64,000 nucleotides of DNA, taken from an uncultured Solirubrobacterales bacterium. GTDB taxonomy: Bacteria; Actinomycetota; Thermoleophilia; Solirubrobacterales; 70-9. The notes beneath the pieces are model-generated. The model did no database searches, had not been told where the DNA came from, and saw only the letters and a list, made by a program, of their open reading frames with translations. The position numbers were made by a program, and so were the translations under genes. Positions 5,974 through 56,563 of the stretch are shown piece after piece. How positions within the stretch are numbered: position 1 is the first letter of the stretch; the number at the start of each line of letters is the position of its first letter. The stretch is taken from NCBI GenBank assembly GCA_963720805.1, contig CAVRGT010000001.1:170187-234186 (forward strand). Reading direction: 5' to 3'.

Positions 5974-6135
5974 CGTTCGGGCTCATCGTCTCGTCGGGCA
6001 TGGGCGGACAAGGTTAGCCAGTGCGCGTGGAGATGCGTGGGCGATCGGTGTCACGCAATTGGGATGGCCCGGACCTCTCGCGCTAACTCCTAACGCGCGT
6101 CAGACTTTCCGGTATGGTCACTCCTTACATAAGCG

Positions 6136-6252
6136 CCACATCTAGAGGGGTGGAGGGACTGGCCCGATGAAACCCCGGCAACCGCCCCGGACCAACAGGT
6201 TCGGGGGAGGTGCCAACTCCAGCAGGTCAAGTCGAAGGCCTGGAAGATGTGG
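6136..6252 (+). promoter_or_regulatory. SAM-I (S-box) riboswitch aptamer
   Basis: P1 is CCACATCT (6136-6143) paired with AGATGTGG (6245-6252). The conserved core AGAGGGGTGGAGGGACTGGCCCGATGAAACCCCGGCAACC and ...GGTGCCAACTCCAGCAG... matches the S-box consensus as I remember it. Confidence 0.85.
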
Positions 6253-6268
6253 GGAATGTCCGATCGGA

Positions 6269-7837: not shown

Positions 7838-7952
7838 GCGGTCATCCCGGTAGGGGTTTCGCTTAACTTTTTGGGTGGAGACGGAATTGCTGTCGCCTCG
7901 GGGGTGGACGCCCAAAAAGTGCAAGACGCTCCACCCCTACCGGGATGACCGC
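7838..7952. repeat. 115-nt nested palindrome filling the whole intergenic region and including the rfbF start codon
   Basis: The outer 20-nt arms GCGGTCATCCCGGTAGGGGT (7838-7857) and ACCCCTACCGGGATGACCGC (7933-7952) are perfect complements. The inner imperfect arms are CTTAACTTTTTGGGTG and CGCCCAAAAAGTGCAAG. Confidence 0.8.
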
Positions 7953-8733
7953 TAAGCCGCCCGTCGTCATTCTCTGCGGGGGCCGCGGGACCAGGCTGCG
8001 GGAGCGGACGGAGACTGTGCCCAAGGCGCTCGTGGAGATTGGGGCGAAGCCGATCGTCTGGCATGTGATCGGGATCTATGCGGCGCAGGGGTTCGAGCGG
8101 TTTTTGCTTGCGACCGGATATTTGGGCGAGATGGTGGAGGAGTTCGTGGCGGGGGAGAGCTGGGCGGGTGGGGTGGAGGTCGAGTGCGTCGATACGGGGC
8201 TCGATACACCTACGGGGGGGCGAATCGCCAGGCTGGGTGAGCAGCTCGATGGCGGGACGTTTTGCGCCACCTACGCGGACGGGGTCGCCGATATCGACCT
8301 GGATGCGCTGCTCGATTTCCATCGCGCCCAGGACACGCTTGGCACGGTGACCGTCGTGCAGCCGCACCTGCAATGGGGGGTGGCGGAGATTGGCGCAGAC
8401 CACAAGGTCGCGGGCTTCGTCGAGAAGCCGCGCAGCGAGCACTGGATCAACGGGGGGTTCTTCTGCTTCGAGGCGGCTGCGCTGGACTACATCGGCGAGG
8501 ACAGCGTGCTCGAGCGCGAGCCGTTGGAACGCCTTGCCGCCGACAGCCAACTCGGCGCATACCGCCACGAGGGCTTCTGGGATTGCATGGACACCTACAA
8601 GGACGCGGTCGAACTCAACGACATCTGGGCGTCGGGCCATGCCCCTTGGTCTGACCTTCCGAGCGTTCGATCGATTGACCACCGGATCCGTGGGTCAATC
8701 GATCAAACGGCGCTGCCGGCGAGGCGAAGATGA
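7945..8733 (+). CDS. rfbF: Glucose-1-phosphate cytidylyltransferase
   Basis: N-terminus VVILCGGRGTRL...PKALVEIG plus a full-length RfbF-like sequence up to WASGHAPW. The last ~27 aa are encoded by a palindrome (see findings). Confidence 0.85.
   Translation: MTAKPPVVILCGGRGTRLRERTETVPKALVEIGAKPIVWHVIGIYAAQGFERFLLATGYLGEMVEEFVAGESWAGGVEVECVDTGLDTPTGGRIARLGEQLDGGTFCATYADGVADIDLDALLDFHRAQDTLGTVTVVQPHLQWGVAEIGADHKVAGFVEKPRSEHWINGGFFCFEAAALDYIGEDSVLEREPLERLAADSQLGAYRHEGFWDCMDTYKDAVELNDIWASGHAPWSDLPSVRSIDHRIRGSIDQTALPARRR
8665..8708. repeat. 44-nt palindrome inside the 3' tail of rfbF
   Basis: GTTCGATCGATTGACC-ACCGGATCCGTG-GGTCAATCGATCAAAC. The arms are complementary except for one mismatch, and the centre CGGATCCG is itself palindromic. 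Confidence 0.8.
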
Positions 8734-13012: not shown

Positions 13013-13086
13013 CGCGCCCGACAGGATTCGAACCTGTGGCCTCTTCCTCCGGAGGGAAGCGCTCTATCCAGCTGAGCTACGGGCGC
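13013..13086 (-). tRNA. tRNA-Arg (anticodon CCG)
   Basis: The reverse complement is GCGCCCGTAGCTCAGCTGGATAGAGCGCTTCCCTCCGGAGGAAGAGGCCACAGGTTCGAATCCTGTCGGGCGCG. It folds as a cloverleaf with a 7-bp acceptor stem, anticodon stem CTTCC/GGAAG, anticodon loop CTCCGGA and T loop GGTTCGAATCC. CCA is not encoded. Confidence 0.9.
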
Positions 13087-14279: not shown

Positions 14280-15269
14280 ATGGATCTCTCGGCGATCTTC
14301 CTCGGCACCGGCGGTTCGGTGCCCTCGGCGCGGCGCTCGACCGCGAGCGTGATGCTGATCCGCGGCGGCAAGCGGATGATGTTCGACTGCGGTGAAGGAA
14401 CCCAACGCCAGCTGCAGCGCTCGCTGGGCCTGGCCCAGGTCGACGAGATCTTCCTCACCCACTTCCACGCCGACCACATCCTCGGCCTGCCGGGCCTGCT
14501 CAAGACCTATGACCTGACCGCCCGCGAGGAGCCGCTGACGATCTACGGGCCGCGCGGCCTGCGCGACCTCTTCAAGACGCTCGGCCGCCTGATCGGCCGC
14601 ACCGACTACAGCATCGACCTGATCGAAATCGACCCCGGCGAAGCGGTGCGCCACGACGGTGCCGAGGTGCAGGCCTTCGCGGTCGAGCACAGCGTGCGGG
14701 CCAACGGTTACGTGCTGATCGAGCAGGACCGCCCGGGGCGCTTCGACCCCGACGAGGCGAAGCGGCTCGGCGTTTCCGAAGGACCGGCCTTCGCGGCGCT
14801 GCAGCGGGGGGAGGAGGTCGCCGGGAGCAACGGAGCGGTGCGACCGCCCGACGTGATGGGCGAGGCACGACCCGGCCGCATCGTCGCCCTCACCGGCGAC
14901 ACGGCCCCCTGCCACTCGACCGTGGCAGCGGCGGCCGACGCCGACCTGCTGATCCACGACGCCAGCTTCTCCGAGGAGGAGGTCCAGCGCGCCGCCGATA
15001 CCGGCCACTCGACCGTCAGCCAGGCCGCCGCGGTCGCCCGCGAGGCCCACGTCAAGATGCTCGCCCTGGTCCACATCTCCTCGCGCTACCACGTCGGCAG
15101 CGTGCTCGAGGAGGCCCGCGATGTCTTCGAGCCGAGCGTCGCCCCGAAAGACTTCGACCTGGTCGAGATCCCCTTCCCCGAGCGCGGCGAGCCGGAGCTG
15201 ATCGTCAAGGGCGCCCGCGAGCGGGCCGAGCGGCCCGATCCCGAGCCCGCTCCCTCCTCAGAGGGCTAG
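14280..15269 (+). CDS. rnz: Ribonuclease Z (tRNA 3' endonuclease)
   Basis: MDLSAIFLGTGGSVP start and HFHADH zinc motif (FLTHFHADHILGLPGLL). The ATG at 14280 is preferred over the GTG at 14241. Confidence 0.88.
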   Translation: MDLSAIFLGTGGSVPSARRSTASVMLIRGGKRMMFDCGEGTQRQLQRSLGLAQVDEIFLTHFHADHILGLPGLLKTYDLTAREEPLTIYGPRGLRDLFKTLGRLIGRTDYSIDLIEIDPGEAVRHDGAEVQAFAVEHSVRANGYVLIEQDRPGRFDPDEAKRLGVSEGPAFAALQRGEEVAGSNGAVRPPDVMGEARPGRIVALTGDTAPCHSTVAAAADADLLIHDASFSEEEVQRAADTGHSTVSQAAAVAREAHVKMLALVHISSRYHVGSVLEEARDVFEPSVAPKDFDLVEIPFPERGEPELIVKGARERAERPDPEPAPSSEG

Positions 15270-16121
15270 TTCGGCGACCGCGTCGGCGATCTCGGCCGTC
15301 CGGTCCTCCTGCAGGAAGTGCTTGGCCGGCAGCAACGTCGCCTGCTCCAGGCCGAGGGCGCGCTGGACCTCCGCGCGGCGGTGGGAACCGAGCATCGTGT
15401 CCTTCTCGCCCCAGACGACCTGGGCCGGGTACTGGCGCTTGCCGAGCCCGTCGAAGAAGAAGCGCTCCTTCGCGGCGCTCAACTCGAAGCCGCGCATGAT
15501 CTTCAGGAACGCCCGGCCGCCGTCGCCGCGCTTGAGCAGGGCATGGTGGGCGTCGACCTCGGCGCCCGGCACGGCCTCGCGGTCCTCGATCCCAATCAGG
15601 TAGTAGAGCCGGCGAAAGAGCGGCCGCACCATGCCCGCCAGCCAGGCCTCGCCGACGCCCCGAATTGAGAACGGATGCATCGGCCAGGGCCGGCGAAAAC
15701 TCGCTACGTCGGCGAGCGTGTTGAGCGCGGTCAGCGAGAGCACACGGTCCGGGTTGCGGATCGCCCACTCGAAGCCGATCGGCCCGCCGATGTCATGGAC
15801 GACGAGGTGGCAACGCTCAATCCCGAGCGCCTCGATCGCCGCCCCGGTCCACTCGGCCAGCCCGCCCCAGCTGTAGTCGAAGCCCGCGGGCCGCTCGGCG
15901 AGCCCGAGCCCGGGCAGATCGAAGGCGACGCCCCTCAGGTCCCGCGCGGCGAGCTCCGGCACGACCCGGCGGTAGAGGAAGCTGCTGGTCGGGACGCCGT
16001 GCATCAGCACGACCGCCTCACCGTCTCCCTGATCGAGGACGAAGCTGTCGAGGCCGGCGGCGCCGAAGCGCCTGCCCGACGCCTCGTGCTTGGCAAGCGT
16101 TTCCGCAACGTCCGCTCTCAC
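15258..16121 (-). CDS. Alpha/beta-fold hydrolase (haloalkane-dehalogenase-like)
   Basis: VLMHGVPTSSFLYR and the nucleophile region LVVHDIGG. GTG start at 16121. The 3' end overlaps rnz convergently by 12 nt. Confidence 0.8.
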   Translation of the reverse strand: MRADVAETLAKHEASGRRFGAAGLDSFVLDQGDGEAVVLMHGVPTSSFLYRRVVPELAARDLRGVAFDLPGLGLAERPAGFDYSWGGLAEWTGAAIEALGIERCHLVVHDIGGPIGFEWAIRNPDRVLSLTALNTLADVASFRRPWPMHPFSIRGVGEAWLAGMVRPLFRRLYYLIGIEDREAVPGAEVDAHHALLKRGDGGRAFLKIMRGFELSAAKERFFFDGLGKRQYPAQVVWGEKDTMLGSHRRAEVQRALGLEQATLLPAKHFLQEDRTAEIADAVAELAL

Positions 16122-16170
16122 CCGGCAAGCGTGGCAGGAATCGTCGCCACCCGCTGCTACGCTGCGGCCG

Positions 16171-16203
16171 TCCTTTAACCAGGCCCTGTGAGGCCGAGAA
16201 GGA
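16171..16203 (+). promoter_or_regulatory. Probable PyrR-binding RNA hairpin overlapping the pyrR Shine-Dalgarno sequence
   Basis: TCCTTTAACCAGGCCCTGTGAGGCCGAGAAGGA: outer stem TCCTT/AAGGA and inner GGCC/GGCC. It resembles the UCCUUUAA...GAGAAGGA PyrR binding-loop consensus as I recall it. GAAGGAG (16197-16203) is the SD for the GTG at 16214. Confidence 0.55.
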
Positions 16204-16213
16204 GCCAACAGAA

Positions 16214-16774
16214 GTGAACGAGACGGTCGTGCTTGAGCGCGACGATTTGAGGCGGACGCTGCGGCGGATCGCCCACGAGATCGCCGAGAAGAACCCGGAT
16301 CCCGGGGCCCTAGCGATCGTTGGCATTCACACTCGCGGCGCCCTGCTCGCCCGCCGCCTGCACTCCTCGCTCGCCGAGCTGACCGGTGCCGAGCTGCCGA
16401 TCGGCGACATCGACATCTCCTTCTACCGCGATGACGTCGGCGCCAAGTCACCCGCCACGCAGCCGGTCGTCCACGCCTCCCACATCGACTTCGACCTCGC
16501 CGGGCGCACCGTCGTCCTGGTCGACGACGTCCTCTTCACCGGTCGCACGGTGCGGGCCGCGATCGACGCCCTCTTCGACTACGGCCGACCGCAGCGGGTC
16601 CAGCTCGCCGTGCTCTGCGACCGCGGCCACCGCGAGCTGCCGATCCGCCCCGACTACGTTGGCAAGAACCTGCCGACCGGGCGCGAGCAGCGGGTCAACG
16701 TCCACCTCGAGGAGCTCGACGGCAGCGACGAGGTAGCGATCGCCGACGCCCGGCCGGCGGAGGTCGGCGCGTGA
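16214..16774 (+). CDS. pyrR: Bifunctional pyr operon regulator / uracil phosphoribosyltransferase PyrR
   Basis: PRPP-binding motif VVLVDDVLFTGRT, the expected length, and its position at the head of the pyr operon. Confidence 0.93.
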   Translation: MNETVVLERDDLRRTLRRIAHEIAEKNPDPGALAIVGIHTRGALLARRLHSSLAELTGAELPIGDIDISFYRDDVGAKSPATQPVVHASHIDFDLAGRTVVLVDDVLFTGRTVRAAIDALFDYGRPQRVQLAVLCDRGHRELPIRPDYVGKNLPTGREQRVNVHLEELDGSDEVAIADARPAEVGA

Positions 16775-17727
16775 GGCACCTGCTCTCGATCGAGCAGCTC
16801 TCCAAAGCCGAGATCGAGGCGATCCTCGACCGCGCCGAGAGCTTCGCCGAGGTCGGCCGCCGCGACATCAAGAAGGTGCCGACCCTGCGCGGCCGCACCG
16901 TCGTCACCCTCTTCTACGAGGCCAGCACCCGCACCAGCTCCTCCTTCGAGCTGGCCGCCAAGCGCCTCTCCGCCGACCTCGTCTCGGTCAAGGCGGCCGG
17001 CTCTTCGGTCGACAAGGGCGAGTCGCTGAAGGACACGGTCGCCACCCTCTCCGCCTATGACCCGGCGGCGATCGTGCTGCGCCATCCCTACGCCGGCGCC
17101 GCCCAACTGGTCGCCGGCTGGGCCGACGCTGCGGTGATCAACGCCGGCGACGGCAAGCACGAGCACCCGAGCCAGGCACTGCTCGACGTCTACACCCTGC
17201 GCCGCCGCCTCGGCTCGCTCGAGGGCAAGCGGATCTGGATCGTCGGCGACGTCCTGCACAGCCGCGTTGCCCGCTCCAACCTGATCGCCTTCAAGGCGAT
17301 GGGCGCCGAGCTCACCGTCTGCGGCCCGCCCGCCCTGATTCCACGCGGCCTAGAGCAGCTCGGCTGCGCGGTCGAGCACTCGCTGGAGCGGCTCGGCGAG
17401 GCCGACGTGGTCTACGCGCTGCGGCTGCAGCGCGAGCGGATGAACGAGAGCTTCGTGCCCTCGATCCGCGAGTACGCGGCTCACTTCCAGATCGACTCCC
17501 GCCGCCTCGGCCCGCGGCAGCTGCTGATGCACCCGGGCCCGGTCAACCGCGGGGTCGAGCTCTCCGGCGAGGTGATCGACTCGCCGCAATCGCTGATCGC
17601 CGAACAGGTCGCCTCCGGCCTGGTCGTGCGGATGGCGATCCTCTACGAGCTGCTTGCCGCGGGCGATCAGGAGCCCGCGCCGGCCGCCGGCAACGGTCAC
17701 GCGACCCCGATCGGACAACCGGCGTGA
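16771..17727 (+). CDS. pyrB: Aspartate carbamoyltransferase catalytic subunit
   Basis: STRTSSSFE carbamoyl-phosphate motif and HEHPSQALLD. Overlaps pyrR (GTGA). Confidence 0.95.
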   Translation: MRHLLSIEQLSKAEIEAILDRAESFAEVGRRDIKKVPTLRGRTVVTLFYEASTRTSSSFELAAKRLSADLVSVKAAGSSVDKGESLKDTVATLSAYDPAAIVLRHPYAGAAQLVAGWADAAVINAGDGKHEHPSQALLDVYTLRRRLGSLEGKRIWIVGDVLHSRVARSNLIAFKAMGAELTVCGPPALIPRGLEQLGCAVEHSLERLGEADVVYALRLQRERMNESFVPSIREYAAHFQIDSRRLGPRQLLMHPGPVNRGVELSGEVIDSPQSLIAEQVASGLVVRMAILYELLAAGDQEPAPAAGNGHATPIGQPA

Positions 17728-19070
17728 GCGAGATGCGGCTGCAGATGCGCGCTGGGGAGCGCGCGAGCATCGTCCTGCGCGGCGCCACCGTTCTTGACCC
17801 AGTGGCCGGGATCGACGCGGAGCACGACATCGTCGTCCGCGACGGCGTGATCGCCGAGCTGGCGGCACCCGGCGAGGCCACGGCCGACGGGATCGAGGAG
17901 ATCGATGCCGGCGCCCTGCACGCCTTTCCGGCCTTCTTCGACCCCCACGTCCACCTGCGCACGCCCGGCCAGGAGCACAAGGAGGACATCGAGACCGGCG
18001 CCCGCTCCGCCGCCGCCGGCGGCTACAGCGGCATCCTCGCGATGGCCAATACCGAGCCGCCCGTCTCGACTCCCGCCGACGTCGAGGCGCTGCTCGCCGA
18101 CGCCGGCGTTGCCGCCGCGGTCAAGGTCGGTTTCCTCGCCACCGTGACGCGGGGTATGGAGGGGGAGGAGCTGACCGAGATGGCCTCGCTGCGCGATGTC
18201 GGCGCCGCCGGCTTCAGCGACGACGGCCTGCCGATTCGCAGCGCCCGGATGCTGCGTCGGGCCCTCCAGTACCAGCGCCTCTGCGGCGGCACTATCGCCC
18301 TTCACGAGGAGGACCCGGAGCTCTCCGGAGCGGGCGTGATGCACGAGGGCCCGGTCTCCGCCGTGCTCGGCCTCGAGGGCATCCCCTCGGTCTCGGAGTC
18401 GACGATGATCGCACGCGACGCCGCCCTGGCCGGCTACGAGGGCGGCCGCATCCACGTCCAGCACCTCTCGGCGGCCGAGTCGGTCGAGGCGGTGCGCGCG
18501 GCAAAGGCCGCCGGAGTCCAGATCAGCTGCGAGGCCTCGCCGCACCACCTCTGCCTCACCGACGAGGAGGTGCGCAGCCTCGACCCGCAGCGCTTCAAGA
18601 TGAACCCGCCGCTGCGCAGCGAGGCCGACCGCCAGGCCCTGATCGAGGGGCTGCGCGACGGCACGATCGAGTGCATCGCCACCGACCACGCTCCCCACGC
18701 GGCCGAGGAAAAGGAAGTCCCCTTCGAGCAGGCGGCGATGGGCGTGACCGGCCTGGAGACCGCGTTCGCCGCCCTCTACACCGAGCTCGTCCTGCCGGGC
18801 ACGATCGAGCTCGGCCTGCTGATCGAGCGCCTCGCCGGCGGTGCCGAACCCTTCGAGGTAGAGCGCCCCTCGCTGGCCCCGGGCAGCGAGGCCAACATCG
18901 CCATCTGCGACCTCTCGGCCCGCTGGACGGTCGGCGAGGACGGCTACGAGAGCCGCTCCTCCAACTCCTGGTGCGCCGGCAAAGAGCTGACCGGCCGCGT
19001 CCAAATGACCCTGGCCGCCGGTCAAATCGCCTACCGCCTCCGCTCCTTCTCAATGGGAGTCGCAGCATGA
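17724..19070 (+). CDS. pyrC: Dihydroorotase
   Basis: DPHVHLRTPG metal motif and DHAPH. GTG start overlapping the pyrB stop. Confidence 0.93.
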   Translation: MSEMRLQMRAGERASIVLRGATVLDPVAGIDAEHDIVVRDGVIAELAAPGEATADGIEEIDAGALHAFPAFFDPHVHLRTPGQEHKEDIETGARSAAAGGYSGILAMANTEPPVSTPADVEALLADAGVAAAVKVGFLATVTRGMEGEELTEMASLRDVGAAGFSDDGLPIRSARMLRRALQYQRLCGGTIALHEEDPELSGAGVMHEGPVSAVLGLEGIPSVSESTMIARDAALAGYEGGRIHVQHLSAAESVEAVRAAKAAGVQISCEASPHHLCLTDEEVRSLDPQRFKMNPPLRSEADRQALIEGLRDGTIECIATDHAPHAAEEKEVPFEQAAMGVTGLETAFAALYTELVLPGTIELGLLIERLAGGAEPFEVERPSLAPGSEANIAICDLSARWTVGEDGYESRSSNSWCAGKELTGRVQMTLAAGQIAYRLRSFSMGVAA

Positions 19071-19074
19071 CGAC

Positions 19075-19120
19075 CCTTCCGGTGCGCTTTATGCACCCCC
19101 CAGGTTCAAAAGGCGCACCG
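19075..19120. repeat. Hairpin repeat (CCTTTTG..TGCATAAAG family) between pyrC and carA
   Basis: CCTTCCGGTGCGCTTTATGCAC (19075-19096) is identical to the reverse complement of 34211-34232. The arms CGGTGCGC(-)TTT and AAAGGCGCACCG are complementary with one bulge. Confidence 0.75.
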
Positions 19121-19122
19121 CA

Positions 19123-20233
19123 ATGAACGAGGGATACCTGCTGCTCGCGGACGGGGCTCGGTTCGACGGGATTCCCTGTGGCGCCGAGGGGCCCGTGACC
19201 GGCGAGGTCGTCTTCAACACGGCTATGACCGGCTACCAGGAGTCGGTCACCGATCCCTCTTATGCCGGGCAGATCATCGTCTTCACCTACCCGCTGATCG
19301 GCAACTACGGCGTCTCGGCGGCGGCGATGGAGTCCGACCGCGCCCATGCCCGCGGCGTGGTCATGCGCGATCCAAAGAACGGTGAGGACGTCGCCACCGC
19401 CGAGGGCGGCTGGCTCGACTGGCTCGCCGACTGCGGCGTGCCGGCGATTGGCGGCGTCGACACCCGCGCCGTCGTCCGTCACATCCGCGACCGCGGCGCG
19501 ATGCGCGGCGGCATCTTCCCCGCCGGCACGCCCGAACCCGAAGCACGTGAGCGCGTCGCCGCCGAGCCCTCGATGGACGGCGCCGACCTCGCCCGCACTG
19601 TCACTCCCGCCGAGCCGGTCCGCTTCGAGGGGGAGGGCGGCCCGCACGTGGTCGGCATCGACACCGGGATCAAGCTCAACATCGTGCGCCAGCTGCGCGA
19701 GCGCGGCTGTCGGCTGACGCTGCTGCCCTGCACCTCCACGCCGCAGGAGGTTCTCGCCGAAGAGCCCGACGTCGTCTTCCTCGCCAACGGCCCCGGCGAC
19801 CCGGCGGCGCTCGGCTACGTAGTCGACACCGTGCGCGAGCTGGTCGGCCAGAAGCCCCTCTTCGGCATCTGCCTCGGCCACCAGCTGCTCTGCCGCGCCG
19901 TCGGCCTCGAGACCTTCAAGCTCCCCTTCGGCCACCGCGGCACCAACCACCCGGTCAAGGAGCTGGCCACGGGGCGGATCGACATCACCTCGCAGAACCA
20001 CGGCTTCGCCGTCCAGGGCCCCGGCGGCGAGCCGCGGATCGAGGCCGACGAGCCGGTGCGCTGGGAAACCGACTTCGGCGCCGCCGAGCTCTCCCACCTC
20101 AACCTCTACGACCGCACGGTCGAGGGGCTGGTGCTGAAGGAGGTCGGCGCGGCGACGGTCCAGTACCACCCCGAGGCCGGCCCCGGACCGCATGACGCCC
20201 GTCACCTATTCGATTCCTTCCTGGAGCTGACCA

Positions 20234-20241
<8 letters not shown>
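19123..20241 (+). CDS. carA: Carbamoyl-phosphate synthase small (glutaminase) subunit
   Basis: GICLGHQLL catalytic Cys motif and a full-length CarA-like sequence. Confidence 0.95.
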
Positions 20242-23389
<3,148 letters not shown>

Positions 23390-23393
<4 letters not shown>

Positions 23394-25243
23394 CCGCCCC
23401 CTTCGGGCGGCGGCTCTGTGCGGTTTCCGAGAGCCGTGCGACGGGCGGCTACAGGCTCTTTTCCCTGATCGACACCGAGGGTCCCGAGCCCCGGCCGGGC
23501 CAGTTCTACATGCTCGCCACCGAGAACCACTGGGAGCAGAGCGGGCAGCGCCCCTACCTCCCGCGAGCGCTCTCAGTCGCCGAGACCGGACCGGCGGCGG
23601 GCGGCGTCCGCCTCGACTTCCTGATCGAGGGCATCGGCCCCGGCACCGACCGCCTCTGCGAGCTCGAGCCCGGCGAGAACGTCTGGGTCAACGGCCCCCT
23701 GGGCAACTCGTTCTCAACCCCCCGCGAACTGCATCAACTTCTCCACCCGCTAGATGGAGAAGTTGATGCAGTTCGGCCGAGCGGGGCGGTCTTGGTGGGG
23801 GGTGGGATCGGGATCGCGCCGTTGGCGCTGCTGAGGCGCCGCTTCGCCGCGAAGAACATTCCGACCCGGGTCCTGCTGGGCTTTCGCGACGCAGCTCACT
23901 CTGGCGGCCTCGATGAGCTCTTCTCGTGTTGCGAGGTTCGTCTGGCCAGCGACGACGGCCACTCCGGTCACCACGGCTACGTCACCGACCTGCTCGCCGC
24001 GATACTCGCGGGCGACGACGCATCCAGCGCCGCCGTTTATTCCTGTGGCCCGCCGCAGATGCTCGACGTGGTCGCCGCCACCTGCACCGCGGCCGATGTC
24101 CCCTGTGAGCTCGCCATGGAGTCCCCAATGGCCTGTGGCTACGGCGCCTGCTTCGGCTGTGCAATCCCCAAGCCCGGGGGCGGCTTCATTCGGTTGTGTG
24201 TTGATGGGCCCGTGTTGCGTGGGGGGCCGGCGGGTCCTGTCGCCGCAGGGGACCCCCCACCGCCTGCGGTAGCTAAAGCTTCCTCGGCGGCGGGTCCCCC
24301 TACGGCGCCACCCCCCGGCAGCCACGGATCAGCGGGCCCGTCGACTCCGATCGAGTTTTGCGGGATTGAGTTGGCGCACCCGGTGGTCAACGCGTCCGGG
24401 ACGTTTGACGCGATAGCGGGCCGGCGCGTGTACGGCGACGCCCTGCTGACCGACTTTCCCTTCTCGGCCTTTGTCTCCAAGACGATCACGCCCGAGTCAC
24501 GCACAGGTAACGAGCCGCAGCGGATCTGGGAGACGCCGGCGGGAATGATCAACTCGATCGGGCTGCCGAACAAGGGGCTCGAGGGGTTCCTGGCCGAGGA
24601 CCTGTCACAGCTGGCGGAGCTACCAGTGCCTCTGATCGTCTCCGTCATGGCGACCGCCCACGAGGAGTTCGCGCGACTGGTCAAAGGTGTGGGGGAGAGG
24701 GACGAGGTGACGGCGATCGAGCTCAATGTCTCCTGTCCCAACGTGCACTCAGGACTGATCGTCGGCGAGCAGCCGAGCGAGACCGAGGCCCTGCTCGAAG
24801 CGTTGCGGCCGTTGACCGAGAAGCCGTTGATCGTGAAGCTGACGCCGAACGTGGCGAACCCGGTTGATGTTGCAGTTGCGGCTGAGCAGGGTGGGGCTGA
24901 CGCGGTTTCGCTGATCAACACGCTCAAGGCGAGCGCAATCGATCCAGCAACGGGCCAACCGGGCATCGCGGCCGGGCACGGTGGACTCTCCGGCCCCGCG
25001 GTGCGGCCGGTGGCCGTCGCCCAGGTGCGCGCGGTTGCCGCCGCGGTGAGCATCCCGATCGTCGGTATGGGCGGAATTTCGAGCGGGGCCGATGCGGTCG
25101 AAATGCTCTCCGCCGGGGCAACTCTCGTCGCCGTCGGGACTGAGAACTTCCGCGACCCGCGGGCGGGCAGCCGAGTAGCGGGCGAGATTGCCGGAGCGCT
25201 CCAAGCCGGTCGAAGCAGGGCTCCAATCACCCCCACCGCCTAA
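23390..25243 (+). CDS. pyrD: Dihydroorotate dehydrogenase B: PyrK-like electron-transfer subunit fused in one ORF to the PyrD catalytic subunit
   Basis: Residues 1-~280 have the FAD/NAD-binding fold plus a 2Fe-2S Cys cluster (MACGYGACFGCA...CVDGPV). From ...IEFCGIELAHPVVNASGTF onward the sequence is a class-1 DHODH (GLPNKG, NVSCPN, GLSGPA). The ~35-aa Pro/Ala linker is encoded by a repeat element. Confidence 0.88.
23725..23775. repeat. Perfect 21+9+21 nt palindrome inside the pyrK part (51 nt = 17 codons)
   Basis: CGAACTGCATCAACTTCTCCA-CCCGCTAGA-TGGAGAAGTTGATGCAGTTCG, translated in frame as (R)ELHQLLHPLDGEVDAV(R). Confidence 0.85.
24230..24311 (+). repeat. ~82-bp palindromic repeat, copy 3 (inside the ORF at the pyrK-pyrD junction)
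   Basis: GCGGGTCCTGTCGCCGCAGGGGACCCCCCACCGCCTGCGGTAGCTAAAGCTTCCTCGGCGGCGGGTCCCCCTACGGCGCCAC. It is homologous to 44221-44300 and to the reverse complement of 27871-27952. Confidence 0.85.
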
Positions 25244-36881: not shown

Positions 36882-37337
36882 GTGAGCGAGCTGACCAGCG
36901 CCGCGGTCCCGCCCGTCGGGCCCGCGGACCACAGGCGCGGCTCCGGCCCCGAGCTGATCGTCTACGCCGACCTCGGTTGCCCGCACTGCGCCTCGGCCTG
37001 GCTGGAGATCGGCGAGCGCGAGGCGACGATCGTCTTTCGCCACTTTCCGGTCGCCAGCAAGCACCCGCGCGCGCCGGCCCTGCATGCTGCCGCCGAGGCC
37101 GCCGGCCTCCAGGGCCATTTCTTCGAGATGGTGGACTCGCTTTACGGCGACCGCGGCCACGTCGACGATCCGCACATCTGGCAACGAGCCGAGCGCCTCG
37201 AGCTCGATCTCGATCGCTTCGAGGCCGACCGCCGCTCCGAGGCCGTCCTCACCCGCGTACGCAGGGACTTCGAGTCCGGCATCCGCGCCGGCGTCACCAG
37301 CACCCCAGCCCTCTTCCCACCCCCCACGACACGCTGA
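36882..37337 (+). CDS. DsbA-family thiol:disulfide oxidoreductase
   Basis: Thioredoxin-fold CPHC active site (YADLGCPHCASAW) and C-terminal GVTSTPALF. Confidence 0.8.
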   Translation: MSELTSAAVPPVGPADHRRGSGPELIVYADLGCPHCASAWLEIGEREATIVFRHFPVASKHPRAPALHAAAEAAGLQGHFFEMVDSLYGDRGHVDDPHIWQRAERLELDLDRFEADRRSEAVLTRVRRDFESGIRAGVTSTPALFPPPTTR

Positions 37338-37385
37338 CTGTGGCTTTGACCGCGCTATAGGGGGGTCAAAGCCACAGTCAGCGTG
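37330..37385. repeat. Perfect 22+12+22 nt palindrome bounded by CGCTGACT/AGTCAGCG; it supplies the stop codon of the dsbA-like gene
   Basis: CACGCTGACTGTGGCTTTGACC-GCGCTATAGGGG-GGTCAAAGCCACAGTCAGCGTG. The TGA at 37335-37337 lies within the left arm. Confidence 0.85.
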
Positions 37386-46652: not shown

Positions 46653-46674
46653 CTTTTACCCCCGCCTTATCTGC

Positions 46675-46720
46675 TGACTTCCTCTTTTTGGGCGCATAGG
46701 GGATACAAAAGAGGAAGTCA
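46675..46720. repeat. Hairpin repeat (CTGACTTCC-armed) in the divergent regulator/ftsK intergenic region
   Basis: TGACTTCCTCTTTT-TGGGCGCATAGGGGATAC-AAAAGAGGAAGTCA with perfect 14-nt arms. It is homologous to the reverse complement of 56485-56532. Confidence 0.8.
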
Positions 46721-46766
46721 CCGGCTGGGCGAAGGGGTGGGCAGGCCGACGTCGAAGGGGGGGCTC

Positions 46767-55759: not shown

Positions 55760-56488
55760 GTGCACGTGATCGCAATCTTCGGTCCCACCGGTGTGGGGAA
55801 GACCGGCGTCGCGATCGAGCTCGCTGAGTTGCTGCGGGCGCGGGAGGAGGATCCCGTGGCGATCTCCTGCGATGCGCTGCAGGTCTACGAAGGTCTCTCG
55901 GTCCTGACCGGCGTGGCCTCCGCCGAGGAGCAGGCTCGCCTCGAGCACAGGCTTGTCGGGTTCGTGCCGGTGACCGAGCGGTTCAACGTCGGCGATTACA
56001 TGCCGCTCGCGCACGCCGAGATAGATCGGGCACTGGAGGCCGGCCGGCGGCCGATTGTCGTCGGCGGGACCGGCCTCTACCTGCGAGCAGCGCTGGGCGA
56101 GCTTTCCCTCGTCAAGGCGCCGGCGGAATCGAAGGACTCGGAGCTGTGGTCGCCCGAGACGCGGCATCCGACGGCGATCTTTGGGCTCGATATGGAGCGC
56201 GAGCAGCTCTACGAGCGGATCGACGCGCGGACGGAGGCGATCGTTGCGGGCGGGGCGCGCGCGGAGGTCGAAAGGGCGGAGGCGGCAGGGCCGTCGCGGA
56301 CCGCGCGCAAGGCACTCGGCTTCGACGAGGTGCTCAGCGGCGACCTGGCGCGGATGCAGCAGCGCTCGCGCAACTACGCCCGCCGTCAGTTGACCTGGAT
56401 GCGCAAGGTTCCCAACCTCCGCTGGATCGACCGCGCCGAGCGCACCGACGCGGAGGTGGCCGCCGAGATCGCCACCCACCTGCGCTGA
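55760..56488 (+). CDS. miaA: tRNA dimethylallyltransferase MiaA (compact, 242 aa)
   Basis: P-loop GPTGVGKT, VGGTGLY and RNYARRQLTWMR motifs. Confidence 0.88.
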   Translation: MHVIAIFGPTGVGKTGVAIELAELLRAREEDPVAISCDALQVYEGLSVLTGVASAEEQARLEHRLVGFVPVTERFNVGDYMPLAHAEIDRALEAGRRPIVVGGTGLYLRAALGELSLVKAPAESKDSELWSPETRHPTAIFGLDMEREQLYERIDARTEAIVAGGARAEVERAEAAGPSRTARKALGFDEVLSGDLARMQQRSRNYARRQLTWMRKVPNLRWIDRAERTDAEVAAEIATHLR

Positions 56489-56532
56489 CTTCCTCTTTAT
56501 GCATGCCATTGCGCCCAAAAGGGGGAAGTCAG
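56485..56532. repeat. Hairpin repeat (CTGACTTCC-armed) that supplies the miaA stop codon
   Basis: CTGACTTCCTCTTT-ATGCATGCCATTGCGCCC-AAAAGGGGGAAGTCAG. The miaA TGA (56486-56488) lies in the left arm. Flanked by CG..CG, giving CGCTGACT / AGTCAGCG. Confidence 0.8.
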
Positions 56533-56563
56533 CGACGGGGGAATGGGTGAATAGGCTTGCCCG

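Follow-up and report, generated by a model that had tools for sequence, protein, structure and literature searches.

What maintains a perfect palindrome inside the coding region of a conserved enzyme? The question is raised by a 64,000-nucleotide (nt) stretch of DNA from an uncultured Solirubrobacterales bacterium (contig CAVRGT010000001.1; the whole stretch is called the window below), in which a 51-nt palindrome, here termed site C, is read in frame within the pyrK part of a fused pyrK-pyrD gene. Comparison with related loci identifies site C as an old in-frame palindromic insertion in which the stem rather than the peptide is conserved, and the accepted changes carry a signature of the sense strand. 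The two features on which the argument turns are the following.

23725-23775, forward strand: the 51-nt hairpin element, site C, with its 5′ arm at 23725-23745, its loop at 23746-23754 and its 3′ arm at 23755-23775.

23390-25243, forward strand: fused pyrK-pyrD gene for the electron-transfer and catalytic subunits of dihydroorotate dehydrogenase B (617 amino acids), identified from Pfam, alignment to PDB chains and 120 fused homologues.

The sequence of site C, CGAACTGCATCAACTTCTCCA-cccgctaga-TGGAGAAGTTGATGCAGTTCG, has arms complementary in 21 of 21 positions around a 9-nt loop, begins at base three of an Arg codon and encodes (R)ELHQLLHPLDGEVDAV(R) between the motifs GPLGNSF and VLVGGGIGIAP of the PyrK part. 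An earlier note made from the letters of the window had described the same arms, loop, frame and position between conserved motifs, together with a TAG in the loop that is out of frame, and all of this is confirmed from the sequence. Its judgement that such a structure is unlikely by chance is likewise borne out. The arm has no further near-match in the window and a second occurrence was expected 0.00 times in 100 dinucleotide shuffles; the longest perfect stem in 100 first-order Markov resamples of the window was on average 11 bp and at most 15 bp, whereas the actual window contains stems of 20, 21 and 22 bp. The RNA fold of the 71-nt stretch 23715-23785 on the forward strand reaches -41.6 kcal/mol (z = -8.9), and the palindrome is far beyond chance. 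Scans for terminators and promoters around site C found none, nor does a terminator-like tail or U-tract accompany it. At gathering threshold Rfam assigned no family to site C, and searches at E<=10 of 23200-23900 and 15000-19300 returned generic miRNA-hairpin noise only.

The open reading frame (ORF) that hosts site C contains the Pfam domains DHODB_Fe-S_bind, NAD_binding_1 and DHO_dh, and its best 120 homologues are fused PyrK-PyrD proteins throughout, from Solirubrobacterales, with 76-91% identity. It is the last gene in the operon order pyrR-pyrB-pyrC-carA-carB-pyrKD, and site C lies 335 nt into pyrK. Alignment to the PyrK chains 5ksw_B and 1ep3_B of the PDB places the element in the linker between the FAD-binding barrel, which ends with GPLGNSF, and the nucleotide-binding domain, which starts with VLVGGGIG. 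In HMMER alignments with the solved chains 5ksw_B, 1ep3_B and 4ylf_A a gap of 11-12 residues falls exactly at site C. The three-dimensional placement of the insert is that given by the PDB sequence alignment; an AlphaFold2 model built from a 30-sequence alignment had a mean predicted local distance difference test score of 48.6, was unusable and was left out of the placement.

Filled and empty alleles were compared at both the protein and the DNA level. Among 251 distinct related PyrK-PyrD proteins (homologues and translated loci together), the insert is present in 66 and missing from 185; about half of the best 120 homologues have it, at the same site, and the solved PyrK structures are all without it. 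The earlier note had proposed an exact insertion of 17 codons, and the 185 of 251 proteins without it, together with the structures, uphold the insertion. Its exact length is another matter and hinges on the foot of the stem.

23723-23731, forward strand: codons CGC GAA CTG (R-E-L) at the outer 5′ foot of the stem, delimited from filled and empty alleles in protein and DNA.

Insert-free homologues read ...FSTPREL-SPGAA-GAILVGGGIG, so that the REL residues occur in empty alleles too, and from these alignments the REL foot of the stem may be host sequence and not inserted DNA. Long filled alleles read ...REL-HQISNPADREFDAVR-SEGAA-GAILV, that is, REL plus 15 residues followed by the retained native S.GAA. 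Because REL is native and S.GAA is kept in the long filled alleles, the original gain was 15 codons (45 nt). The allele of the window has lost a further three codons, leaving a net gain of 12 codons. A gain of 15 codons in the long form and 12 in the window, with REL native, does not agree with 17. The 3′ end of the gained DNA, CAGTTCG, is an inverted copy of the native upstream CGAACTG, and no direct target-site duplication was detected between filled and empty sites beyond a 2-nt CG ambiguity. The earlier note had also reasoned that removal of 23725-23775 restores a spacing that matches PyrK of the B. subtilis type. The deletion does yield the predicted join, ...STP-R-PSGAVLV..., but the closest insert-free orthologues read ...STPREL-SPGAA-GAILV... 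instead.

Loci were gathered from 80 GTDB species-representative genomes, 80 JGI metagenome contigs and nine further contigs; labels such as L161 below denote such loci. They contain 26 distinct DNA versions of the insert, all of which, except the decayed version of L087, form one and the same 18-21 bp stem. The carriers are independent assemblies of Solirubrobacterales diverged at the species level. A solitary perfect palindrome could have been an artefact of assembly or amplification or a private mutation of very recent date, and a probable assembly error does occur elsewhere in the window (a surplus C near 22988 in carB). However, 25 further contigs assembled independently (GTDB genomes, JGI metagenomes, NCBI, ENA and Logan) also contain the hairpin, with sequence variants. 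This recurrence in independent assemblies refutes both forms of the explanation, which is scarcely conceivable any longer, and settles the concern of the earlier note about such artefacts. The impression that the palindrome looks recent also had to be given up in view of the 66 protein clusters, the 26 DNA versions at the same site in diverged species, the compensatory substitutions and the intermediates. The orthologue alignment that had been suggested as a check shows the residues to be common to 66 of the 251 relatives. An old and ordinary loop had been envisaged for the case that orthologues share the residues without palindromic DNA; in the event the orthologues have the residues in common, and the palindromic DNA with them. 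The insertion is therefore old and yet no ordinary protein loop.

Conservation of the stem was assessed by a covariation test on an 18-sequence gap-free alignment (A2) with 20 pairs and 500 partner shuffles. Standard pairs made up 92.8% of the cells as against 84.5 ± 0.9% after shuffling, and both partners had changed in 8 of the 20 pairs where 3.0 were expected. None of the 500 shuffles reached any of the five covariation measures, and sliding the partner by 1-3 columns abolished the signal. The steps can be followed in column 17, which passes from C-G in the window through U·G in many lineages to U-A in L091, and along a second path from C-G via C·C (L161, L075) to G-C (L004).

The arms are also far more conserved at third codon positions than the surrounding gene. 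Mean pairwise identity at third codon positions among 16 carriers was 0.88 in the arms and 0.52-0.67 in flanking pyrK; over all positions the arms had 0.83 and the loop 0.555. GC content at third codon positions in the same carriers was 0.29 for the whole element and 0.82-0.90 for flanking pyrK, from which it follows that the AT-rich arms have resisted the GC pressure of the genome. The arms are held at the nucleotide level, including nominally synonymous positions, and the loop is free to drift. In the insert the amino acids themselves vary in pairs (QL..EVD, QI..EFD, QV..ELD), because position 1 of a codon pairs with position 1 of its partner and position 2 with position 3. Selection at the level of the protein would not give such coupled pairs.

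An adaptive peptide, selected as a surface loop of PyrK with the palindromic DNA as an incidental by-product, would account for the near invariance of ELH and DAV and for the persistence of the insertion through considerable divergence. The conserved residues are, however, encoded by mutually complementary codons, the amino-acid changes track base pairing, and the third positions are more conserved than those of the flanks and use rare AT-ending codons. The central residues are hypervariable, and most orthologues as well as the solved structures do without the insert. Selection for the peptide is on this evidence very improbable indeed.

Since each G·T pair is an A·C pair on the opposite strand, the choice of strand can be read from the imperfect pairs. 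Core columns 4-19 of the 25 non-decayed versions contain 368 Watson-Crick pairs, 19 G·T, 1 A·C and 12 others, all counted as cells and not as independent events; seven of these columns hold G·T and one holds A·C. Transitions from A-T pairs under the GC pressure of the genome should give G·T and A·C equally, and the sense strand would for this reason be the one that must fold. This points to mRNA as the folding molecule, with the non-template DNA strand as the alternative, as judged from the pattern of substitution.

Another possibility is that the hairpin, as pyr mRNA or DNA, is bound by a regulatory protein such as the product of the PyrR-like phosphoribosyltransferase gene (16214..16774) located directly before pyrB, and would thereby be a second operator or attenuator in the operon. 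The motif in the loop of the Bacillus PyrR site is CCAGAGAGG. The loops of several relatives hold CCAGAGGG or CCAGCAGAG, which are reminiscent of it, and the lower stem, CTGCATC/GATGCAG, is invariant among the 18 versions in a manner that suggests sequence-specific recognition. Against this, the Rfam PyrR model (RF00515) is unmatched even at E<=10, the window loop CCCGCUAGA is without the motif and the loops evolve neutrally, words like TCCAGAGAGG are not enriched in the window, and the likely PyrR site upstream of pyrR, GTCCTTTAACCAGGCCCTGTGAGGCC, is unlike the hairpin. Site C as a PyrR site is very unlikely, and was rejected for lack of a model match, of motif enrichment and of the motif in the window loop. 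The sequence GTCCTTTAACCAGGCCCTGTGAGGCC lies in 16170-16213, upstream of the PyrR-like gene, and is followed by GAAGGAG; by its position it may be a candidate PyrR binding site that would occlude the ribosome-binding site, and Rfam has no match to it.

The distribution of site C among relatives does not follow simple vertical descent. Outside the insert, carriers are on average 0.824 identical to one another and 0.810 identical to non-carriers, and the nearest neighbour of many carriers is a non-carrier at 0.89-0.93 identity. Residues associated with carriage are found only within about 15 codons of the insert (phi up to 0.54). In a neighbour-joining tree carriers are interleaved with non-carriers; the tree is star-like and includes two mis-extended sequences, and the patchiness is concluded from pairwise identities and nearest neighbours, not from the tree. 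The comparison extends to a neighbouring palindrome.

23324-23372, forward strand: site D, a further perfect palindrome, formed by two 20-nt arms around a 9-nt loop within the final codons of carB and belonging to the foot family GCCGACGGGCCG.

Site D lies 350 nt upstream of site C and adds net 17 codons to the consensus CarB tail ...EIHGLERAKQPR*. Of the three closest genomes, the window has both sites, L161 has site C only and L003 has site D only, and with the other loci all four combinations of the two sites occur. The site D copy in L003 is identical in 49 of 49 nt while the flanks are about 88-90% identical; no site D was found in L161, in 120 CarB tails or in the other relatives examined. 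In a homologue search with the C-terminal tail of CarB, its peptide was in no other protein and the tails were hypervariable. Being identical in L003 and missing from the other relatives examined, the site D insertion looks much younger than the pyrK hairpin. In L003 the copy is preceded by tandem GGGGCCGAC repeats.

These patterns keep alive a different explanation, in which the hairpin is a selfish or neutral palindromic mobile element similar to a miniature transposable element with inverted repeats (MITE), a repetitive extragenic palindrome (REP) or a Rickettsia palindromic element (RPE), has no role for the host and owes its pairing to processes at the DNA level. Template-switch correction of quasipalindromes, re-insertion or recombinational exchange of alleles would maintain the stem, and survival would reflect in-frame landing in a tolerant linker. 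Patchy carriage relative to the PyrK-PyrD tree, neighbours that often differ in state and the mixed states of sites C and D are what it leads one to expect, as are the uncoupling of the hairpin sequence from its flanks, the decay in some lineages, and a length that is a multiple of three with one open frame as in RPEs. Related families of about 51 nt, namely GCTGACTTC...GAAGTCAGC, GCCGACGGGCCG and F3-like hairpins, are present at unrelated loci, and one loop is inverted between L097 and L159.

The members of these families are relevant both to mobility and to the class to which site C may belong. A second site in pyrK of other genomes, about 200 nt into the gene, carries a different in-frame hairpin of 51-55 nt, with arms GCTGACTTCGYCTTT and the peptide ...AETGP-PLTSSLVPDSGTKDEVSG-RRLDF..., in nine loci (L012, L017, L020/L101, L086, L097, L110, L118 and L159). 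Both pyrK hairpins are present in L086. The inverted loop belongs to this second site, GATAG in L159 being the reverse complement CTATC in L097 with the arms unchanged. The family concerned, GCTGACTTC...GAAGTCAGC, is represented at +200 nt of pyrK in the nine loci and again in the window itself.

46673-46722 and 56484-56533, and more loosely 37330-37385: hairpins of the GCTGACTTC family with GCTGACT(TC) feet, about 70-76% identical to the pyrK copies.

Hairpins at the pyrC-carA junction of L001 and L004 also have the GCCGACGGGCCG foot of site D, apparently read in frame at the start of carA, and the foot is present in L074 as well. A third family occupies the same junction in the window.

19079-19121, forward strand: site A, a hairpin at the pyrC-carA junction, of the family CCGGTGCGCTTT-N19-AAGGCGCACCGG, with one mismatch in the window and z = -3.1.

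The site A element is found in 13 other loci with a conserved U·G pair on the sense strand; its 3′ arm, which reaches up to the carA ATG, contains an AAGG motif resembling a Shine-Dalgarno sequence. L123 has an F3-like copy elsewhere, at an unrelated site 2.6 kb downstream of pyrKD. Nearly all of these sister hairpins measure 49-55 nt, and many share CTTT...AAAG about 13 nt from the ends and a central (G/C)ATAG, an architecture that is suggestive. Other families of about 51 nt recur at 2-4 loci.

Site C differs from them in copy number. BLAST found no second copy of its sequence in the window or in roughly 1.5 Mb of related loci, and a covariance model of site C run over the window retrieved only itself at 75 bits, the other hairpins scoring 16 bits or less, so that its sequence is known from one locus only. 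This tells against a selfish element, and so does the lack of a target-site duplication, a transposase or a REP-associated tyrosine transposase (RAYT) gene in the loci examined, no complete carrier genome having been scanned. Homogenisation of DNA does not predict the strong excess of G·T over A·C on the sense strand. A further point against a selfish element is that the arms change at a lower rate than synonymous sites and have kept their AT-richness under GC pressure. The association of carriage with flanking residues also suggests one origin followed by recombination and not repeated insertions. Quasipalindrome template switching, known from the Ripley model and from studies of the E. coli thyA hotspot, copies a change in one arm to the other. 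It could account for the perfect stems and for their independence of how far the flanks have diverged, but the 19:1 ratio of G·T over A·C and arms slower than synonymous sites are not among its predictions. A selfish or neutral element is on balance a tenable possibility, although not one that we would expect to prove right.

The interpretation favoured here, with a probability of roughly 0.55, is that site C is a selected mRNA hairpin of the sense strand that carries a passenger peptide. Several observations weigh against it. Presence and absence of site C are patchy relative to the gene tree, and the similarity of the hairpin is unrelated to that of its flanks (r = 0.10 for the arms and -0.04 for the loop); in the closest pairs the flanks are 0.78 identical at third positions and the loops 0.43. 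Near the carB/pyrK boundary, only between about one quarter and one third of the relatives' genomes have a hairpin of any kind, and copies are decaying in L087, P0072, P0075 and P0108. With such partial carriage and decay the hairpin is dispensable. The excess of G·T, taken by columns instead of cells, is 7:1 with p about 0.07, and template switching inside a palindrome can create seemingly compensatory changes without selection. Patchiness and uncoupling from the flanks fit mobility, recombination or hypermutation at least as well as purifying selection, and a function in decay or processing is pure inference. Taken together the distribution and the flanks indicate a history of recombinational shuffling, repeated gain and loss or fast evolution specific to the palindrome, and not simple vertical descent.

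For the selected mRNA hairpin the following course of events can be proposed. A palindromic element of about 45 nt would have inserted in the inter-domain linker of PyrK and, with the native REL codons, formed the 51-nt hairpin, the protein tolerating the 12-15 added residues as a passenger peptide. Mutations in the arms would survive only where pairing is kept, as Watson-Crick or G·U pairs on the mRNA, while the loop drifts. The allele would afterwards have been shuffled among lineages by recombination, or gained and lost repeatedly. The hairpin would belong to a lineage-specific class in Solirubrobacterales, whose members measure about 51 nt (17 codons) and occupy gene junctions or, read in frame, the interior of genes. 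Located just downstream of carB in the polycistronic pyr mRNA, the stem might act as a barrier to 3′-to-5′ exonucleases or as a processing site of the RNase III type. A barrier would stabilise the upstream part containing carAB relative to pyrKD, and such a role would uncouple carAB, which serves arginine as well as pyrimidines, from pyrKD. We infer that an exonuclease barrier or a processing site is the most plausible role, perhaps as a means of adjusting how the operon mRNA decays or is translated; the specific decay barrier takes no more than a third of the probability given to the selected hairpin. Given the patchy carriage, site C cannot be essential to the stoichiometry of the operon. 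A wider proposal, which we consider tentative and would sooner doubt than adopt, is that the hairpins of 51 nt (17 codons) are an undescribed kind of translatable cassette that spreads among loci and genomes, settles in frame and is retained as a control element of mRNA, the pyrK copy being old and domesticated. With one reading frame open, such cassettes could settle in frame within essential genes; their control would concern operon decay, processing or the coupling of translation, and they would amount to mobile RNA regulators that enter coding sequence by themselves.

In-frame palindromic repeats and intragenic mRNA structures are each already established concepts. Palindromic repeats in frame are known from Rickettsia and other bacteria (PMC10969869; PMC3184786), and the RPEs (Ogata et al. 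2000, as reviewed there) comprise ten families of about 105-150 bp. RPEs resemble site C in being short palindromes in frame in housekeeping genes, translated and tolerated by the protein, and resemble the hairpins of this lineage in forming several families present at the same site in related species and missing from others. Size and host set them apart: about 105-150 bp in Rickettsia (Alphaproteobacteria) as against 51 nt, of which 45 were gained, in Solirubrobacterales (Actinomycetota). RPEs are multi-copy, in contrast to the sequence of site C over the window and the 1.5 Mb of related loci. To our knowledge neither covariation of the stem nor a G·U bias of the sense strand has been reported as a defining feature of RPEs.

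REP stem-loops such as that of malE-malF are grouped with hairpins that protect operon mRNA. In E. coli, protective hairpins within the coding region of the downstream neighbour shape the differential decay of operons, and the mean distance of these structures into the ORF is 107 ± 56 nt, with raised wobble conservation (Dar & Sorek 2018, PMC5927463). Site C shares with them a stable stem-loop without a U-tract, raised wobble conservation and retention between related species (PMC5927463). The hairpins described here lie at -66, +200 and +335 nt from the start of pyrK, to be compared with the 107 ± 56 nt of E. coli, and the protective structures of E. coli are embedded in native coding sequence whereas site C is a discrete insertion with a putative function. 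The mode of existence of site C is closest to that of RPEs, and its likely action closest to that of intragenic protective operon hairpins.

Mycobacterial interspersed repetitive units (MIRUs; Supply et al. 1997, summary in PMC3184786) consist of direct repeats in tandem, with inverted repeats that are imperfect and with tetranucleotide direct repeats where a site is filled. Like the hairpins here, they are actinobacterial units of 40-100 bp in polycistronic operons with filled and empty sites, and the ends of their open reading frames overlap the genes on either side; the junction hairpin at 19079-19121 is their closest counterpart. Compared with MIRUs, site C is a single near-perfect hairpin within a gene and has no evident target duplication. 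The terminal inverted repeats of a MITE are present, the element consisting of two inverted arms, but a target-site duplication is not. REPs are extragenic, usually of 20-40 nt with a GTAG-type head, and occur in tens to hundreds of copies with a cognate RAYT gene. REPs and REPINs, which depend on RAYT Y1 transposases, and elements derived from IS200/IS605 resemble the present hairpins in their single-strand fold, conserved feet and clean polymorphism of presence and absence; site C is unlike REPs in being intragenic, 51 nt long and without a GTAG head. A literature search for palindromic elements in Solirubrobacter or relatives found nothing.

The pyrK insert places two overlapping codes in an essential enzyme gene, of which the constrained layer is the nucleic-acid structure and not the peptide. 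It extends in-frame palindromes of the Rickettsia type to uncultured soil Actinomycetota with a much smaller element, and it provides candidates for operon-internal signals of mRNA decay or processing in a phylum where such signals are barely known. For annotators and protein modellers it follows that a loop peculiar to one lineage in a conserved enzyme can be the footprint of a nucleic-acid element, and conserved signature indels such as site C can be patchy and recombining and hence are not clean phylogenetic markers.

Some further features of the hairpins and of the window were recorded. The second pyrK hairpin has the coordinates 3204-3258 in L159, 3201-3255 in L097, 6200-6250 in L017, 1738-1788 in L020 and 389-437 in L086. 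Named carriers of site A are L002, L003, L005, L006, L008, L009, L011, L012, L015-L017 and L075; some copies contain a mini-ORF (ATG...TGA) overlapping the start of carA, an arrangement that suggests a device for translational coupling or occlusion. In the GCTGACTTC family of the window the TGA within the GCTGACT foot is the stop codon of the upstream gene at 37335-37337 (a DsbA-like gene) and at 56486-56488 (miaA), and the hairpin at 37330 lies about 95 nt upstream of pnp, which encodes polynucleotide phosphorylase. Five loci emerged when viral contigs were scanned for the GCTGACTTC...GAAGTCAGC family, and among them L163 alone looks related: positions 2325-2416 of this viral contig of 64% GC (IMGVR_UViG_3300036854_000091) form a long palindrome, GCTGACTTCAGTCTTC...GCATAGG...GAAGACTGAAGTCAGC, that resembles the family. 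A near-palindrome of 46 nt, CGTTCGATCGATTGACC...GGTCAATCGATCAAACG, located at 8664-8709 of the window in the C-terminal tail of a nucleotidyl-transferase gene (7945..8733), may be another in-frame hairpin at a gene junction; the stop of this gene overlaps the start of the epimerase gene that follows. A GC-rich imperfect hairpin, CGCGGAGGAGGACTCCTCGTCC...GGGCGAGGAGCC.ACCTCCGCG, is conserved in several genomes some 6.2 kb downstream from where pyrK starts (L001 12275-12329, L061 12120-12174, L065 12177-12239, L067 13231-13291, L075 12303-12357).

Upstream of pyrKD, carB is broken into the overlapping ORFs 20234..23182 and 22926..23393 by one surplus C (ACCCAG-C-CTGCAC, near 22988, window 22980-22995) relative to L161 and L003. 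As L174, L075, L015 and L095 have similar breaks, the surplus C is probably an assembly error, a real frameshift being the alternative. The PyrK/PyrD junction of the fused protein is a Pro/Ala-rich linker (GPAGPVAAGDPPPPAVAKASSAAGPPTAPPPG) at 24220-24350, residues about 278-320. The sole Rfam matches in the window at gathering threshold are a SAM riboswitch at 6135-6253 on the forward strand (90 bits) and a tRNA gene at 13013-13086 on the reverse strand.

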